Shown: positions 2,248 to 14,248 of the stretch, one piece after another
Layout of the letters: the number at the start of each line of letters is the position of its first letter
Numbering within the stretch: position 1 is the first letter of the stretch
Source: Anaerolineae bacterium
GTDB lineage: Bacteria > Chloroflexota > Anaerolineae > S140-20
Reading direction: 5' to 3'
Length of the DNA stretch: 14,248 nt
Assembly: GCA_027021705.1 (NCBI GenBank)
Contig: JALUTT010000041.1
Location: 1-14,248, forward strand
Made by a program: the position numbers and the translations under genes
The notes under the pieces: generated by a model
Databases searched by the model: none
The model's input: only the letters and a program-made list of their open reading frames with translations
What the model was told of the DNA's origin: nothing

Positions 2248-5200
2248 ATGAACGATCACGAGACAGCTTATCGGCAGGTCTTCGAGAGGAGCCGTGATGC
2301 GCTGTTCATTGTGGATGAGGAAGGGCGCTATCGCGAGGTCAACGCTGCAGCTCTGTCTCTGACAGGGTACAGCCGGGAAGAACTGCTGGCGATGCGTGTT
2401 ATGGACCTACTGGCCCCGGAGATGCGTCCGGGTGCAGAAGAGCGGCTGCGCACGCTGCTGGCTCAGGGTGGGGGGGTTCAGGAGACCAAGATCCGCACCA
2501 AAACGGGGGAGGTGCTGACCATCGAGCTGAGCGTGAGTCGCATCACCTATCAGGGCAAGCCGGCGCTTCTGGGCGCGGCCCGGGAGATCGGCTGGCGCAG
2601 GGAGACGGAAGCGCGGCTGGCGTGGCTCAACCGAATGCTTCGCACCATCAGCACCATCAACCAACTCATCGTCCGGGCCGAAACCCCCCAGCAGCTTCTC
2701 ACCGAAGCCTGTCACCGTCTGGTGGAGGCCGGACGATACCGTCTGGTCTGGATCGGCCTGATCGCCGAGGGGGATCCCGTCGTTCGACCGGTGGCCGTTG
2801 CCGGTGAGGTTCCTGGGTACGTCGAGGAGATCGAGGTCCGCTGGGACCTGTCGCCCCTGGGCCATGGTCCCACCGGCACCGCTATCCGTACCGGTCAGCC
2901 TTCCCTGTTCTCCGACTTCATCCGGGACCCTCGGGCCGCTCCCTGGTGGGAAGCGGCCCGACGCCACCACCTCGCCTCGGCGTTGAGCCTACCCATCCGC
3001 CGGCGTGACCGCACCTGGGGAGCGCTCACGGTGTACGCCGACCATCCGCACGCCTTTGACGACGAAGAGGTGGCCCTGCTGCACGAGCTGGCCGGCGACC
3101 TGGGGCTGGCTCTGGACCACCTGGAGGCCGTTGAGGCACAGCAGCAGTACATCGCCCGATTGGAGACCCTGCACGAGGTTGATCACGCCATCCTGGCTGC
3201 TCGTTCTCCCCAGGAGATCGCCCAGGCGGTCCTGACCCATATCCGTCGGCTGGTCCCCTGCGACCGGGCCAGTCTTCTCCTCTTTGACTTCTTGGCCGGC
3301 GAAGCTGAGGTGATGACGGTGGACGTCAACGGGGTGACCGAGCTCGACGCCGGACTGCGGATCCCCTTGCAGAAGATCCACGCCCTAGAAACCTTGCAAG
3401 CCCGGCAGGTCTATCAGGTGACGGACCTCGCTGCCCAGGAACTGCTCAGCCCCACGGAGCGCCAACTGATGGCCGAGGGCGTCCGCTCGCTCCTGGTCTT
3501 CCCCCTTACGGCCCGGGGGCGTCTGCTGGGGTCCCTCAATCTGGGCCGGAAGGAGCCTCGAGCCTTTACCGCAAGGCAGTTGGACATCATCCGGGAGGTG
3601 GGCGATCACCTAGCCGTCGCCCTGGAGAACCTGCAGTTGTACGAGGACGAGCGGAAGGCTCGCCTTCTGGCCGAGGCCCTGCACGAAGCGACGGCCGCGG
3701 TCAGCAGCACCCTGGACTTCGAGGAAGTCCTGGACCGCATCCTGGAGCAGGTCAGCCGGGTCGTCCCCAACGATGTGGCCAACGTGATGCTCGTCGAGGG
3801 GGACTGGGTGCGGGTCGTGCGCTGGCGGGGGTATGAGCGCTTCGGCGTCGAGGAGATCGTGGCTTCAGCGACGTTCTCTCTCACGCGGACGACCAACATG
3901 CGCTGGATGCTGGAGACCCGCCAGCCGATGGTCATTCCCGATACGACCCGTTATCCCGGATGGGTTTGTCTCCCTGGGATGGAGTGGCTGCGCTCTTACG
4001 CTGCTGCGCCCATCTGCTTGCGGGATCGTGTGCTGGGGTTCCTCAACGTGGACAGCGCGACCCCAGGCTTCTTCACCATTGCCCACGCCCGCCGCCTGCA
4101 AGCGTTCGCCAATCAGGTGGCCATCGCCTTGGAAAACGCCCGGCTCTACCAGGAGTTGAGGCAGTATAGCACCCATCTGGAGGAGATGGTCCAGGAACGC
4201 ACCCAGGCTCTGCGGGATCAGCAGGCCCGCGTCCAGGCCATCCTGGATGCGGCGGGCGAGAGCATCTTCTTCACCGATCGGGAGGGCACCATCCTCTACG
4301 CCAACCCGGCGACCACCCGGCTGACCGGATACGCGCTGGAAGAGATCGTCGGGCGGACGTTGCAGTTGTGGCAGGATGACCAGGATGCCCAGACGCGCCG
4401 CAAGGCGATGTGGGAGACCCTGCGTCAGGGCCATCTCTGGCGGGGGGAGACGGTGAACCGGCGCAAGGATGGCACCTACTACGACGCTCTGCTGACCCTG
4501 GCCCCCATCCAAGATGAGCGGGGAGAGATCACCGGCTTCGTGGGTGTGCAGCAGGAGATTACCCACCTGAAGGAGCTGGACCGGCTGCGCACCCAACTGA
4601 TCTCCAACGTTTCCCACGAACTGCGCACGCCTCTGACCAACCTGAAGCTCTACCTTCGGCTGTTGGAGCAGGGAAAGCCCGATCGGCGGGCCGATTACCT
4701 AGAGACCCTGCACCGAGAAGCCGATCGGCTCCACCGCCTCATCGAGGACCTGCTCTACCTTTCCCGGCTGGAATTGGAGGGCGAGGAGGTCCACCTGCGT
4801 CCTATGGACCTCAACCGATTGGTCCAGGTGCTGGTGGAAGACCGCACGATGCTGGCGGGGCAGAAGGGGCTGGTTTTGCGGATGGAGTTACAGGAGCCGC
4901 TCCCCCTGGTGTTGGGCGATGAGCGGTTGCTCGGGCAGGTGTTGACCAATCTGTTGACGAACGCGATGCGCTACACGCCGTCGGGCGGCGAGATCGTCCT
5001 GGGTACGGCGCTGGTGGAGCAGGAGGGGGAGCGATGGGTGACGGTCTCGGTGACCGATACCGGCTTAGGGATTCCCTCCGAGGAGTTGCCTCACCTCTTC
5101 GAGCGTTTCTTCCGGGGCGAAGCCGCCCGTCAGACAGGGGCTCCAGGCACCGGGTTGGGATTGGCCATCTGCCAGGAGATCGCCGACCGCCACGGCGGAC

Positions 5201-5291: not shown

Positions 5292-5321
5292 TTGGGCGGT
5301 AATGGAGGGGTGTGCTATACT
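5292..5321 (+). promoter_or_regulatory. Putative extended -10 promoter for selD
   Basis: TG-c-TATACT (5313-5321) with a weak -35 TTGGGC (5292-5297) at 18 nt spacing. Confidence 0.6.
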
Positions 5322-5324
5322 TCT

Positions 5325-5443
5325 GGCGTGAGGCGTGAGGCGTGAAACGTGAGGCGTGAGGCGTGAAGCGTGAAACGTGAGGCGTGAGGCGTGAGGCGTG
5401 AGGCGTGAAGCGTGAGGCGTGAAGCGTGAGGCGTGAAACGTGA
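5325..5443 (+). repeat. 17 tandem heptamers, consensus RRCGTGA (GGCGTGA/AGCGTGA/AACGTGA)
   Basis: Counted directly: uninterrupted 7-bp period from 5325 to 5443 with invariant CGTGA. Confidence 0.97.
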
Positions 5444-5466
5444 GGACGCACGGAGAGAAGGGAGCG

Positions 5467-6542: not shown

Positions 6543-6812
6543 ATGGAACTCCACGAATTGGTCATTGAGATGAAGCTTCTGGAGCGTCGTTTGACCCTCT
6601 ACGAGGAAAAGTACGGTATCCTCAGCGAGGATTTCTACGCGGCTTTGATGTCGGGCAAGCTGGCCCGATATGACGAGTTTGATGAAACACGCGCCGATTT
6701 CAGCCGCTGGAAGGGCATCTACGAGACGTGGCTGCGTCGTAAGGAGGCCTACACCGCTCAAATTCAACAACACGACCTGGCCGAGGTCCTACGCTTTCAA
6801 CCTGCTTACTGA
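6543..6812 (+). CDS. Putative antitoxin, TumA-like (89 aa)
   Basis: AAGGAG SD then ATG 6543, inside track ORF 6354; [14 protein letters not shown]...G...DF.RW pattern; directly upstream of a DUF6516-like gene. Confidence 0.65.
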
Positions 6813-6820
6813 GTGTGGAT

Positions 6821-7261
6821 ATGTCTCCTCTGCGATCGCTTGCCGATTACAGCCGTTTCGTGGCGCATTGGCTTGATCGGCCTACAATCGAGCGCTCCAC
6901 CGTGGTGGTCTGGTCTACCAGTCCTTACACGGGAGTTGCTGAGGGGGAGGTCTTCTTCTCGGGAGAATTCCGGCTGCGGATGAGGGAGGAGCTAGATTTT
7001 GATGCGGGCTTGATTACTTCGTATGGATATGAGGTGTACCGAGGCCAGGAGCGGCTGTACTGGTACGATGACTTTCCACATCCCGATGATCCGGCGTTAG
7101 CGTCAACCTATCCCCATCACAAGCACATTCCCCCCGACATCAAGCGCCATCGCATTCCGGCGCCGGAGATGAGCTTTACTCGGCCCAACTTGCCGGTTAT
7201 CATCCGGGAGATCGAAGCGTTGATAGAGCACGGGGAGGCTTCTCAGAAGACCTCTCCTTGA
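6821..7261 (+). CDS. DUF6516/TumE-like toxin
   Basis: SYGYEV...YWYDDFPHP...STYPHHKH motif typical of DUF6516; ATG 6821 (alternative GTG 6815) lies 8 nt after the antitoxin stop. Confidence 0.75.
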
Positions 7262-9842: not shown

Positions 9843-11972
9843 ATGATCGCTCAAGGGACAACTTCTCCCCCCGGCAAGCGAAGAGAGCGGTGGCGGCGGC
9901 TGCGCCTGCTGGCCCTGGGGCTGGCCTTCAGCCTGGCCATGGCCGCCATCCTCATCGTCCCCCTGCTCCCCTCCAACCGGGTGACGCTGGAGGTGGGGGA
10001 TGTGGCCCCCACGGACATCCGCGCCCCCCGCCGGGTCACCTACATCAGCAAGATCGAGACGGCGCAGGAGGAGGAGCGAGCCGCCGCGGCCGTCCAGCCC
10101 ATCTACGGGCCGCCGGAAACCCGGATCGCCCGCCAGCAAGTGGCCCGCGCCTATCAGGTCCTCGACTTCCTGACCTCGGTGCGGGCCGATTCGTATGCCA
10201 CCGCCTACCAGAAACGGCAGGCCATCGCGGCCATCGTGGACCTGGAACTGCCACCCGAGGTGGTCAGCGCTCTGCTGGCCCTGAGCGACGCTTCGTGGAA
10301 GCGGGTGCGCCAGGAGACGATCAACGTCTTGGACCAGATGATGCGCCGGCCGATCCGGGAGGACGCGATGGACGAGGCCTACCGGCAGGTCTCCAGCCTC
10401 ATCTCCCTCGCCCTGAGCGACCAGGAGGCAATGGTGGTGGAGGGGCTGGTGCGGGGGCTGCTGGTGCCCAACACCTTCTACGACGCCGAGGCGACGGAAG
10501 CGGCCCGTCAGGCGGCCCGCGAGGGAGTCGCTCCCGTCGAGCACACCTTGCTACCCGGTGAAGTGATCCTGCGCAGCGGCGAGATCGTCACCGACCTGGA
10601 CCTGGAGGCGTTGGAGGCGGTAGGGCTCCGCCAGCGGACGGCCCGCTGGGGGGAGATCGGGGGGACGGCCCTGCTGGTCCTGCTGACTACGGTGAGCATG
10701 GGCCTCTCCATCCGTCGCTTTCACCCCCACGTCTGGCAGCGGGAGCGAAACCTGGCGCTGGTGGCCTTTCTCTTCGTCTTTTTCGTCCTCGTCGCCAAGG
10801 TGATGATGCCGGGGCGGACGGTGTTGCCCTACCTCTTCCCGGCGGCAGCCCTGGCGATCTTCGTCTCGGTGCTGTTGGGGCCGGCGCTGGCCGTCATCGT
10901 CGGCATCCTGTTGGGGGCCATCGTCGGCTTCATCACCCAGGGGTCGTTGGAGTTGGCCGCCTACGTGGCCCTGGGCAGCCTGGTGGCCGCCCTGGTGTTG
11001 GAGCGGGTGGAGCGGGTCAACGCCTTCTTCTGGGCCGGCATCTACGTGGCCCTGACCAACATCGCCGTCGTCCTCGCCTTTCGGCTGCCGGAGGGGGCGA
11101 CGGATACGGTGGGGATGGTAACGCTGGTGGCGGTAGGGGTGCTCAACGGGGCGCTCTCGGCCAGCCTGACCCTGGCCGGCCTCTTCGTCGTCGGCAACCT
11201 CTTCGACATCACCACGTCGCTGCAGCTGTTGGAACTGGCCCGCCCCTCCCACCCCTTGCTCAGCGAGCTGCTGCACAAGGCGCCGGCCACCTACCACCAC
11301 ACGGTGATGGTCGCCAACCTGGCCGAGCAGGCCGCCGAGCGCATCGGGGCCAACCCCTTGCTCACCCGGGTGGGGGCCTTCTACCACGATATTGGCAAGA
11401 TCGTGCGCCCCCACTTCTTCAGCGAGAACCAGATGGATGGGGTCAACATCCACGACCGGCTGGATCCCTACACCAGTGCCGAGATCCTCATCAGCCACGT
11501 CACCGATGGGCTGGAGCTGGCGAAGAAGTACCGGTTGCCCAGCCGGGTGCGGGCCTTCATCCCGGAGCACCACGGCACGATGCGGGTGAGCTTTATGTAC
11601 CAGAAGGCCCTTCAGGAGGCCGGGGGCGATCCCTCGAAGGTGGACGAAGCCCGCTTCCGCTATCCGGGGCCGAAGCCTCAGAGCAAGGAGACGGCCATCC
11701 TGATGCTGGCCGATGGTTGTGAGTCGGCGGTGCGGGCTGCCCGTCCCACCTCGGTGGAGGAGATTGAGAAGATCGTGCGCAAGATCGTGGAAGCCCGCCT
11801 GGCCGATGGGCAACTGGACGAGTGCGACCTGACGCTGCGGGAGCTGAAGCAGGTGGCCCAGTCCTTCGTGGAAACGCTACGGGGGGTCTATCACCCTCGG
11901 GTGAAGTACCCGGAGCCGGAGGAGCGTCAGGGCTTGAAGCACAGTGCCGGTGCTGCCCATTCTACCGGCTAA
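9843..11972 (+). CDS. 7TM-HD (HDIG) phosphohydrolase, PgpH/YqfF-like cyclic dinucleotide phosphodiesterase
   Basis: N-terminal TM, extracellular domain, several TM helices, then APATYHHTVMVANLAE, YHDIGK, HVTDG, EHHGT, FRYPGPKPQSKE, MLAD. Confidence 0.9.
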   Translation: MIAQGTTSPPGKRRERWRRLRLLALGLAFSLAMAAILIVPLLPSNRVTLEVGDVAPTDIRAPRRVTYISKIETAQEEERAAAAVQPIYGPPETRIARQQVARAYQVLDFLTSVRADSYATAYQKRQAIAAIVDLELPPEVVSALLALSDASWKRVRQETINVLDQMMRRPIREDAMDEAYRQVSSLISLALSDQEAMVVEGLVRGLLVPNTFYDAEATEAARQAAREGVAPVEHTLLPGEVILRSGEIVTDLDLEALEAVGLRQRTARWGEIGGTALLVLLTTVSMGLSIRRFHPHVWQRERNLALVAFLFVFFVLVAKVMMPGRTVLPYLFPAAALAIFVSVLLGPALAVIVGILLGAIVGFITQGSLELAAYVALGSLVAALVLERVERVNAFFWAGIYVALTNIAVVLAFRLPEGATDTVGMVTLVAVGVLNGALSASLTLAGLFVVGNLFDITTSLQLLELARPSHPLLSELLHKAPATYHHTVMVANLAEQAAERIGANPLLTRVGAFYHDIGKIVRPHFFSENQMDGVNIHDRLDPYTSAEILISHVTDGLELAKKYRLPSRVRAFIPEHHGTMRVSFMYQKALQEAGGDPSKVDEARFRYPGPKPQSKETAILMLADGCESAVRAARPTSVEEIEKIVRKIVEARLADGQLDECDLTLRELKQVAQSFVETLRGVYHPRVKYPEPEERQGLKHSAGAAHSTG

Positions 11973-12651
11973 CTACTGGGGAAGCGCGGTCCAGGGGACA
12001 GCGACTTGGGGATGGACAGGATCCAGGCTTCACTTCCCCCCTGCCCGTAGATGACGATCTCGAGCTGAACGCTGGAGACCCGCCGTTGCCCTCCAGGCCG
12101 GTTTTCGCGATGAAGGCCGGACGCCGGCCGACACGCCCCTCCCCCACGATGATGGCCTGGTTGGCGTGTACCCTGCGCTCCAGTTCGGCCGGGGCCAGGA
12201 AGGGGACGCTGGACAGGCCCAGCCAACGGGGGAAAGAGCCCTCGCCCGCGTGGGGGCGAGGCGGGAACTCGCCTTCGTAGATATGCAGGTGGTTGGAGGC
12301 CCGGACGTAAGGGGCCTCCATCTGCCCGTTGAAGACGAGGATGAGGGACGGTTCCCCCCGGTCGCCGACTCCCCGCTCCTCAATGCGCATCCGACGAGGA
12401 GGCATATACCAGACCCTTGCGATGGAGCGTCCGGATGGTCTGATAACTTCACAGGTGGCGATGAAACGGCGGGATTCGGTCTCCCGCGCTCCGGGCGTGG
12501 GGGTTCCGATTTCCTGCGAACTTTCTGGGGGAGCCCGCCACCTCCCGTGGCTGATTGTGAGATCCCCTCGGGACACCTTGCCGGGGTCCCGGCCTGCACC
12601 TGTCACCAGCACGGCGGTCAGCACGGCAAGCGCCAAGAGGCCCATCTTCAA
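11962..12651 (-). pseudogene. Secreted LolA-like/outer-membrane lipoprotein-sorting fold protein, probably frameshifted near 12090
   Basis: Signal-like start MKMGLLALAVLTAVLVTGA; RVWYMPPRRMRIEE, LVFNG and GEGRVGRRPAFI resemble LolA-family strands. The low-complexity tail after KTGLEG is paralleled by a more protein-like alternative frame (VQLEIVIYGQGG...AWILSI, stop 11969). Confidence 0.45.
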
Positions 12652-12750
12652 CCTATGTGGTGTACTGTTTTCCGCCTCTTTCCGATCTTCTCAGCTTCTC
12701 TCTCACCCGCCACGATGCGCCGGTGACCTCTTGTCCGCAAGCTCCTTCAA

Positions 12751-12812
12751 TGATAACGGTTTGCGCTTCACCTGGGCCGCGGAGCGACGTCAGGTGCAAG
12801 CGCTGGTTGGCA
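12751..12812 (-). mobile_element. Integron attC-like recombination site (62 bp)
   Basis: Minus strand: TGCCAAC cagcg CTTGCACC tgacgtcgctccgcggccca GGTGAAG cgcaaacc GTTATCA. AAC/GTT ends; the arms GCGCTTGCACCTG and CAGGTGAAGCGC pair with one extrahelical base. Confidence 0.8.
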
Positions 12813-12902
12813 GCGCCTCCCTCGTAAGAACCGCCAGGGCTTAATGCCGTCCAACGCTCTTACTTTATAGGGCATACCGCTGGCCAGCAAGTTGTCTCTA
12901 GC

Positions 12903-13421
12903 TCAACACCAGCCTTCATTCCAATACCAACGGCAAATCCATGTCGAACCAGCATACAACCATTGATAGCAGGCGAAACTGGGTACATAGATCTGGCTCC
13001 CGGTGAATTGTATATGCACGTGTACGCCTCTCGAACAACTGCAGGCGCAATCAGGGGGAAGCTCACCGATCTTCAGGGTGCGCACATTGCGTACACCGTC
13101 GCTGACTCGATTTCTCACATGACCGTATCCCACACTGCCGATGTAACATTGCCCATTGGGTTTAGCGAAGAAATCTACCACAACCCCATCGGTCCACGGA
13201 GCAGGATCCACTCGACAAACTCCGGAGACCCGCCTTGTCCTAATGCTTTGGATTACCGAGCTTCCGTAAAAGTACAGGGAGTTACCTGCCGAGCCACTGA
13301 TGTCAATCGGGCAACACCCGCCTAACACGCTTACCACTGGATGTGGCTGACCATTACTGCAGTATGTAGCCTGGCCCCAGTTTTGCCCTGTGACCGGTGC
13401 ATAGACATAAACGTAAGGCAT
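12903..13421 (-). CDS. Cys-rich protein with M23A (LasA/beta-lytic)-type Zn-metallopeptidase motifs, 172 aa
   Basis: Start at ATG 13421 after AAAGGAAGG SD (Met43 of the track ORF); H27-X12-D40, YGH101V, KIGEL, SRGVH134VH136IQF; 11 Cys; no signal peptide. Confidence 0.6.
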   Translation of the reverse strand: MPYVYVYAPVTGQNWGQATYCSNGQPHPVVSVLGGCCPIDISGSAGNSLYFYGSSVIQSIRTRRVSGVCRVDPAPWTDGVVVDFFAKPNGQCYIGSVGYGHVRNRVSDGVRNVRTLKIGELPPDCACSCSRGVHVHIQFTGSQIYVPSFACYQWLYAGSTWICRWYWNEGWC

Positions 13422-13450: not shown

Positions 13451-14115
13451 TTAGTTGTGGTTTGCGGCCAATGTCAATAAAGACGCGAGAGCCAACGCCT
13501 CTTCGCGGGATGGACCAAGTTCTGCTATCAGTGTATAAGAACGTCATTTCTGATCCAATGAAAGACTGCCCCTTGTCGAGTGGCTACCATGACGCCAGGT
13601 GATGGAAGAAAGTCCACCTTTTCTGGAACTACTGCAGGACCACCAGGCTCAACAGGATCACTCGACCAGAGAGGGAATGGTTTTGGGAACTCCGGTTGTG
13701 CCCAGATACTCACCTTGGTTTCTAAATCTCCAGAGCGTTCGTTATGCGACTGAAAGTCAACCAAAGCAGCGAACACCTCGCCTGTCTCATATCTGATGAG
13801 AGTTGCTCCGGCCTGTCGCAGCCTTTCGGGCAACTTGCTGAATGTGTAGACAGGGAAATCCACCTCTTTTGCCAGCTCTGCAGCGGTGCTGAACGATTGG
13901 TTGATTGCTGTCGGCACAGGGCCATCACGCCCGGCTCCCACGCCACAAAAGGTGGGCATCCCACGTTCAGGATACTTGACGTTCGGCGGGACAGGTGCCC
14001 CGTCGGGGAGAAGCAAGAACCCTGCATAGATCTCACCGAGCGAGGATGTTTGAGGCAATAGCGTCTCTGGTGGTCCCCAGGAAACATGCTTGTTGAAAAA
14101 GTCTAGCTTCCTCAA
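13451..14115 (-). pseudogene. Hypothetical (DUF4367-like) protein with apparent 1-nt deletion near 13538
   Basis: Track ORF 13528-14115 ends abruptly at FHWIRNDVLIH*. Restoring one base gives NDVLYTLIAELGPSREEALALASLLTLAANHN* ending at TAA 13451, just before the SD of the next gene. AELAKEVDFPVYTFSKLPE and the W...Y.L...EEAL..A.L end resemble DUF4367-type domains. The start is uncertain. Confidence 0.5.
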
Positions 14116-14248
14116 TTTATTGGAGCGTGACCAAAAACGGTTGGAGCGGGTGACTCAGGCGACCATTGTGAAGACCGCTGCCTCGGCGTCCGGTGAAGCT
14201 CTCCCCCAAGAGCCATAGAGACGCCGATGCTGACGGCGGCGACGGAAA

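Follow-up and report, generated by a model that had tools for sequence, protein, structure and literature searches.

The closest described systems to the element reported here are the attC sites of class 1 integrons and, at the level of whole elements, the CALIN (Cury et al., PMC4889954) and the SALIN (10.1101/2022.09.11.507474). An attC site is described as having an R'' AAC and an R' GTT core, L''/L' inverted repeats, a length of 55-141 nt and spacers of at most 10 nt (PMC7370490). Chloroflexi are counted among the integron-bearing phyla (PMC4889954), and Chloroflexi integrons also appear in PMC8618304; none of the 11 attC models of PMC8352920 is for Chloroflexota, and the main text of the SALIN preprint contains 0 occurrences of Chloroflexi, the supplements of this preprint and of PMC4889954 being places that may list Chloroflexi elements. 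In the literature searched, outside of which lay most subscription papers and all supplements, we found no paper whose subject is cassettes of Anaerolineae or an M23 enzyme carried by Tat. The window, by which we mean the whole stretch of 14,248 nucleotides analysed, is the complete contig C41 of an Anaerolineae assembly (5.19 Mb, 183 contigs, 94.9% complete).

The window contains an integron attC site (R''-L''-loop-L'-R') at 12751..12812 on the minus strand, recognised by its anatomy and by covariance-model matches. Along this strand, the site consists of R'' TGCCAAC (12812-12806), the 5-nt spacer CAGCG, the 8-nt L'' CTTGCACC (12800-12793), a loop of 20 nt, L' GGTGAAG (12772-12766), the 8-nt spacer CGCAAACC and R' GTTATCA (12757-12751). 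From established attC knowledge, we take the crossover to be at G|TT, between 12757 and 12756. With 62 nt, AAC and GTT cores, spacers of 5 and 8 nt and L arms that pair at 7/7 positions after one base is flipped out, it falls within the published description of attC sites, and its core flanks deviate from RYYY/RRRY. The first-pass annotation, made from the sequence alone, had already reported an attC-like 62-bp imperfect palindrome with AAC...GTT ends and a 5-nt R''-L'' spacer, all of which is borne out; it had also described an 8-nt L'' opposite a 7-nt L' with one extrahelical base, which is correct, but had missed a second one. On the plus strand, the bottom and recombining strand, T12790 and C12797 are both extrahelical and six apart (T-N6-C), a spacing at which excision by IntI1 is efficient (PMC3053210). 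Class 1 attC sites of the aadA / aac(6')-IIa type are alike in box lengths, in the 5-nt left spacer, in the flipped fourth L'' base and in a 20-nt loop with a GAC..GCTYCGC core; unlike in these sites, the right spacer has 8 nt, three of which pair, and the bottom-strand extrahelical base is C, not G. The L'-R' spacer, singled out earlier as longer than in classic sites, does exceed the 5-7 nt found in ten class 1 attC sites; it is not unusual within its own family, as 11/12 other sites of alignment A2, a set picked by similarity, also have 8 nt.

A covariance-model check had been proposed for the site, and both models used here match it. Model R1 contains ten attC sites, exclusively from class 1 integrons at four plasmid loci (six loci were fetched, two of which were repeated dfrA14), and gave a single match in the window, over the full length of 12751-12812, with 23.2 bits and an E-value of 0.0012 (E-values are rough). 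Genome-wide, with 150 of 2700 candidates scored, R1 returned 3 sites among the matches listed, the window site not being one of them; the window site is a modest match for R1. Model R2 draws on 17 attC sites in other loci of the Anaerolineae type, none from this genome and several originally found by their likeness to the window site, and scored the site at 52.7 bits (E 3.5e-10). A strict anatomy rule, composed after seeing the window site, was satisfied by 2/1000 shuffled windows and by 16 sites in the genome (15 attC-like by eye) as opposed to 0, 1 and 0 in three shuffled genomes; a looser anatomy scan of the genome, with 1585 candidates, was too unspecific and served only to choose seeds. 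Over the 17 sites, double changes occur in 11/22 arm pairs, a value as high being reached in 0/500 shuffles, and the covariation score is 0.305 against at most 0.095 in slid controls, a difference that related sequences can inflate. An Rfam search yielded one chance-level match, Chlorobi-1, with 16.3 bits versus 50 and away from the site.

The same hairpin could in principle be a chance palindrome, a terminator or a host repeat, a reading we regard as exceedingly improbable. Folding by itself is weak evidence for an attC, with a z of merely -1.77 on the bottom strand (-3.18 on the top strand), blastn of the site against plasmids gave no match, and single attC matches may be false (PMC4889954). 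The R1 and R2 matches, the arm covariation and the shuffled-control counts speak against chance, a T-run is absent and the terminator search called none at the hairpin, so that the terminator-only outcome considered in the first-pass annotation did not materialise. Finally, a homologous site occupies the same place in arrays, and the homologous cassette copies refute all three variants of this reading.

The attC almost certainly ends a promoterless three-gene unit of ~2.4 kb, which encodes a beta-propeller-like lipoprotein, a Tat-signal protein and a signal-less M23-fold protein. Next to the attC, and likewise on the minus strand, lie a 3' trailer (12813..12902), which is kept in the loci L037, L044 and L045 and not in copies without attC, and the last gene of the cassette (12903..13421), intact and coding for a Cys-rich protein of 172 aa with no export signal recognisable by eye. 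The middle gene is present as a broken copy of a 245-aa twin-arginine-signal gene (13451..14122, minus strand), whose 5' end is cut by an insertion sequence and which carries a 1-nt frameshift near 13539. This insertion sequence, of which the right end and the transposase 3' end are present (14123..14248, minus strand), belongs to the ISKra4 family (NF033572, 247 bits, cut-off 205), runs on into contig C168 and masks the cassette start. A GTTGGCT near 13495 was rejected as a cassette start, as it sits within the true frame of the Tat gene. The cassette genes have a GC of 0.52-0.53 (GC3 0.52-0.53) compared to 0.66-0.68 (GC3 0.90) in host genes, and the GC of the window drops from ~0.66 to 0.50-0.54 past 12750.

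Searches with the 172-aa protein found 3 genome and 7 metagenome loci, and the window protein is 94-97% identical to the cassette copies. Three loci were left out of our counts: L040, which is the window contig itself, L099, identical in sequence to L037, and L039, with a match of 22 residues. Four other loci (L029, L037, L044 and L045) contain the same cassette with attC. L044 holds the whole unit between two attC sites: an attC at 290-361, the genes for a lipoprotein of 323 aa that weakly matches PD40, for a protein of 245 aa with a weak match to a Tat signal and for the 172-aa protein (frameshifted there), and an attC at 2764-2833. Its cassette starts with GTTGGGC and its own R'' GCCCAAC is the complement, as a circularising cassette predicts. 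In L037 and L029, the unit also starts after an attC with GTTGGGC, the closing site of L037 being present as a left arm only, where the contig ends; in L045, it is closed by an attC in a three-site array and followed by two more cassettes. Because the unit is bracketed by attC sites in these homologous loci, the window site is almost certainly the cassette's own attC. A site of the same attC family with an 8-nt spacer is the first array site beside a full IntI in the genome G110 (L051). In L037, an 89-base stretch opening with an attC left arm occurs twice (1914-2121 and 4490-4578, 94%), the first copy running into a complete second attC.

On the other side of R', the DNA has a different character. 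The first-pass annotation had expected R' to be completed by the next cassette, of which the sequence gives no sign: no attC is present in the downstream DNA, which more closely resembles a chromosomal target. About 100 bases from G|TT lies the remnant of a gene for a 424-aa LolA/RseB-like secreted protein (11969..12657, minus strand; P0138, 72% over 199 aa), with ~190 codons deleted and a host-like GC of 0.66, whose stop overlaps that of the convergent 7TM-HD phosphodiesterase host gene (9843..11972, plus strand), also in the sequencing runs X2 and X3. We take the latter to be PgpH-like; the names PgpH, ybeY, dgkA, proS, uvrB and selD are used here as presumptive labels. R1 detected no attC on the contig downstream of the LolA-like remnant. 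The similarity to the cassette copies ends exactly at the G|TT of R', as IntI recombination predicts. R' extends to GTTATCA, and in the other 28 listed sites the GTT is followed by a purine and a G or C, most often as GTTAGG, although some true cassette starts (GTTATGC, GTTATGT) deviate too. Two further candidates at this border were discarded: a 34-codon frame from R', considered as an interrupted gene, has no homologue in the genome or in the fetched loci, and no attC accompanies the GTTAGCC at the stop of the HD gene, considered as a second junction. An empty allele, i.e. the target without the cassette, was found in none of 60 relatives or 4 runs. The LolA-like gene has 1 homologue and occurs in 0/400 other genomes of the class, and because it is so rare, it could itself be foreign. 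By eye, a ybeY-like gene comes after the HD gene in 15/19 loci of relatives, as a listed ORF in 12 and recognised from the start of the DNA in 3; the remaining 4 loci are arranged differently. The HD-ybeY-dgkA order is split here; as ybeY is located on contig C26 behind other host genes, with its own upstream region, this order does not date the insertion.

These features likely reflect a solitary insertion at a chromosomal GWT. An integrase would recombine the folded bottom strand at G|TT, as for any cassette, and excise or re-insert the unit as a circle. Most likely, the cassette landed off any integron platform at a chromosomal GTT ~100 bases upstream of the LolA-like gene, in an insertion of the attG type, for which only GWT is required (10.1101/2022.09.11.507474). 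The result would be a SALIN, whose integrase has since been lost or was supplied in trans, and the cassette would now be stranded and decaying. We consider this account as a whole, from the attC of a cassette through solitary insertion and decay to the cargo described below, to be reasonably probable. The locus is like a SALIN in having an apparently single attC behind a coding sequence, in lacking an integrase and a further att site on the contig, in a junction at a GTT, which fits the GWT motif, and in the presence of several such sites per genome; it is unlike one in its cargo of three genes, in a contig that ends 1.4 kb upstream and in the absence of an empty allele from the 60 relatives and 4 runs. 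It resembles a CALIN in its attC sites and in a genome without intact intI (PMC4889954), and differs in that ~30 sites are spread over 14 contigs rather than forming a single cluster, with the window site alone on its contig.

The attC could be genuine and nevertheless be the tail of a longer array (CALIN) continuing past the insertion sequence, and/or the LolA-like remnant could be a cassette that lacks its attC. The contig extends for only 1.4 kb upstream and ends in the insertion sequence, with the cassette 5' end beyond it and C168 offering no onward link, so that further cassettes may lie there; the same cassette stands within arrays in L029, L037, L044 and L045, arrays of 2-5 sites exist in this genome (C8, C22, C39, C45, C83, C102, C120, C126), and draft assemblies are known to overcount integrase-less elements (PMC9024848). 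What makes us rate the longer array as rather unlikely is the lack of a second attC on the contig, the downstream gene with its host-like GC and its stop-to-stop arrangement with the HD gene, kept in X2 and X3, and the exact end overlaps, which tie C41 to C105 and C168 only and not to array contigs. A passive move of cassette and attC in place of IntI, either by the insertion sequence or through recombination with a homologous non-cassette operon already resident here, appears improbable. An ISKra4 element does abut the cassette and dozens of such ends are present in the genome, non-cassette copies of the operon exist, disagreeing gene trees indicate recombination among copies, and the HD-ybeY order was already broken at the locus; however, the insertion sequence sits within a cassette gene and does not flank the unit, and the likeness to the cassette copies halts exactly at the G|TT of R'.

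The signs of decay in the cassette comprise the insertion sequence, the frameshift, the lost R'' base and two stem substitutions. R'' has lost one C compared with GCCCAAC in the sister cassette copies, and private substitutions at 12787 and 12775 break pairs next to the extrahelical T, where they weaken the stem; at one of these positions, 16/16 other sites have C-G. The stem substitutions and the lost base would speak against full attC activity. The lipoprotein gene was not found in the assembly. In the runs X2 and X3, which come from a single study, contigs of a population variant match the window between the HD gene and 12147 and then pass into sequence like the 3' end of the lipoprotein gene, with 26/30 letters matching the L029 gene by eye. 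The lipoprotein gene would accordingly seem to belong to the window locus, and the X2/X3 strains appear to have deleted everything between it and 12147, i.e. the Tat gene, the M23-fold gene, the attC and half of the LolA-like gene; X2 also has a 151-base piece spanning the attC at a depth of 2. In contigs of X2 and X3, the left end of an ISKra4-type element is joined head-to-head to the right end in the window (14111-14140), across the 9 bases flanking the element in the window; this arrangement resembles the junction of an IS circle or two IS copies in tandem. X2 further has 36 extra in-frame bases between CGG repeats at the 3' end of the HD gene (window 11966-11968). None of the runs listed as containing the window is an RNA run, and the run X1 may be where this DNA comes from. 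Elsewhere in the window, a low-GC insert of two genes (6564-7261) with a TumE toxin match (PF20126) and no attC beside it is a probable toxin-antitoxin pair, and intergenic tandem repeats with 8-base and 7-base units are located at 2040-2127 and 5304-5459, respectively.

In the genome, R2 found 26 sites at E 0.5, and profile and rule searches add five candidates, giving a total of ~30 attC-like sites on 14 contigs. Six contigs have a single site: besides the window, where the earlier description as a solitary attC or array tail agrees with the sole attC on a 14.2-kb contig, these are C36, C42, C70, C139 and C152, with one each among the 29 listed. A uniform family of 126-nt attC sites on C22, C39, C45, C102, C120 and C126, often followed by an apparently ORF-less GC-rich cassette of ~400 bases starting with GTTAGGAAYGG, is possibly one large fragmented array. 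On C8 (67426-69350, L031), a two-cassette insert lies between a two-component system and archease/rtcB-like genes; its first unit, a Cys-containing secreted protein and a lipoprotein, ends in the closest sister of the window attC. No IntI above the cut-off was detected in the genome (best 88.5 bits versus 265), in line with the earlier remark that no integrase was in view. An intI remnant on C176 (3706-4017) consists of two pieces; compared with the IntI of a relative, residues 1-93 and 161-276 are missing, approximately. It is located just upstream of a proS-like gene (L001) near low-GC genes that point away from it, no attC was detected there, and it is possibly a dead integron platform. A complete integron, with intact intI and attI beside an array, was not found, the remnant lying on another contig; an intact intI may be unassembled in this 94.9%-complete MAG.

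A search for related attC sites and intI, as had been suggested, was productive in relatives. IntI above the TIGR02249 cut-off occurs in 46/151 genomes (150 relatives and this one) and attC matches in 42/61 (this one included), in both cases with kin that are not independent. Together with the published Chloroflexi integrons, these counts do not sustain the rarity that had been implied for an under-studied lineage. Of 14 IntI loci, many of them cut off by the end of a contig, 3 gave sites in the strict scan and 8 with a profile containing the window site.

For the 172-aa cargo protein, 136 relatives were found in a set of cluster representatives, with H27, D40, H101, H134 and H136 invariant. 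Its predicted model (pLDDT 95.9) has an M23 fold of the LytM/LasA type (VIA Z 10.3, rmsd 3.0, 117 residues aligned to 9gy1), and 16 of the 18 best structural matches are M23/LytM-type, so that both the fold and the zinc-ligand pattern of M23 are present. However, EIIA (3our) ties for the first structural rank, and the fold alone therefore does not prove peptidase activity. Pfam returned no family at E 0.1, PF01551 included, and a PDB sequence search no solved-structure match. The protein has the fold and the invariant H..D and HxH in common with the M23 metallopeptidases LytM, LasA and beta-lytic protease; unlike these enzymes, it has no signal or pro-peptide, no Pfam or PDB sequence match and a separate Tat-signal partner gene.

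This Tat gene precedes the M23-fold gene in 13/14 loci examined and was found in 11/400 other genomes of the class. Distant Tat homologues in L063, L064, L067 and L100 have ~100 extra N-terminal residues with a CxxC before the twin arginines. The predicted complex of the M23-fold protein with the Tat chain of L044 reached an ipSAE of 0.91 versus 0.02 for the best of 3 controls, with at least 87% of contacts shared between runs and a partner pLDDT of at least 90; in a benchmark, the mark was reached by 116/157 solved and 2/215 mismatched pairs, counts that apply only roughly to the present prediction with our own alignments. The predicted interface includes H27, D40, H134 and H136, four of the five invariant residues, and the Tat protein is thus predicted to bind the M23-fold protein across its metal site. 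The Tat protein probably keeps the M23-fold protein inactive and carries it through Tat, and the models support such an inhibitory carrier that would export the enzyme via Tat.

Most copies of the module have no attC: the best R2 scores are 16.4 bits (16 loci) and 14.1 bits (14 loci) versus 53-92 bits in cassette loci, the flanks of some non-cassette copies being short (363 bases up and 237 down in L041), while L043 has 12.5 kb. In the single-contig genome G016, four module copies are far from its one attC match, and several non-cassette copies stand behind response-regulator genes. Since all deep tree branches are non-cassette (with a midpoint root only), the module family probably began on the chromosome. 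Its GC is low whether or not it stands in a cassette, and for this reason the non-cassette copies may also be acquired. One copy, L041, is syntenic with the complete cassette at 80% DNA identity over 2.1 kb, without attC. It lies between LuxR-type genes behind a perfect TTGACA-17-TATACT promoter and reads GTTAAAC-AGTCAGC where the cassette in L037 starts with GTTGGGC-AGTCAGC (11/14 match); its 3' end is a terminator-like hairpin framed by AAAC and GTTT, which was dismissed as an attC with no R2 match at E 10.

The cassette copies group together in the tree of the M23-fold gene (92/94 for protein, 71/95 for DNA, not starred). For the Tat gene, their monophyly is rejected (p-AU 0.006), and it was not found in the lipoprotein gene tree; L041 nests among the cassette copies for both genes, with the reservation that the Tat genes of the window and L037 are damaged and that of L029 is partial. 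One scenario is that a regulator-linked Anaerolineae operon acquired an attC and shed its promoter and terminator, with L041 near the precursor and a so far undescribed Tat piggy-back pair as cargo, in which the carrier blocks the active site; we put this forward tentatively and consider it unlikely in its entirety. The opposite course fits two of the three gene trees equally well; L041 would then be a cassette that came to lie behind a promoter and whose attC disappeared. At shallow depth, the trees allow either direction, and L041 is a candidate case of cassette origin. For the integron-borne sul4, an origin in a Chloroflexi chromosome has been proposed (PMC5732528), and the intron model of cassette formation is likewise a proposal (PMC7923331, PMC3053210). 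According to a 2021 survey, no resistance gene of confirmed origin is a cassette, and synteny is rarely useful for tracing origins because neighbours are not co-mobilised (PMC7782503).

As an attC alone, the site is of little importance: it is well supported and of an ordinary kind, integrons being known in Chloroflexota and looking common in Anaerolineae. What is new here are the syntenic operon copies without attC, the candidate case of cassette origin and the confident predicted Tat-M23 complex. A three-gene cassette with syntenic non-cassette relatives allows the boundaries to be compared base by base, and this comparison could bear on how cassettes form. The cargo, in turn, is a concrete test case for whether a wall hydrolase without a signal can be co-exported through Tat by a carrier that inhibits it.
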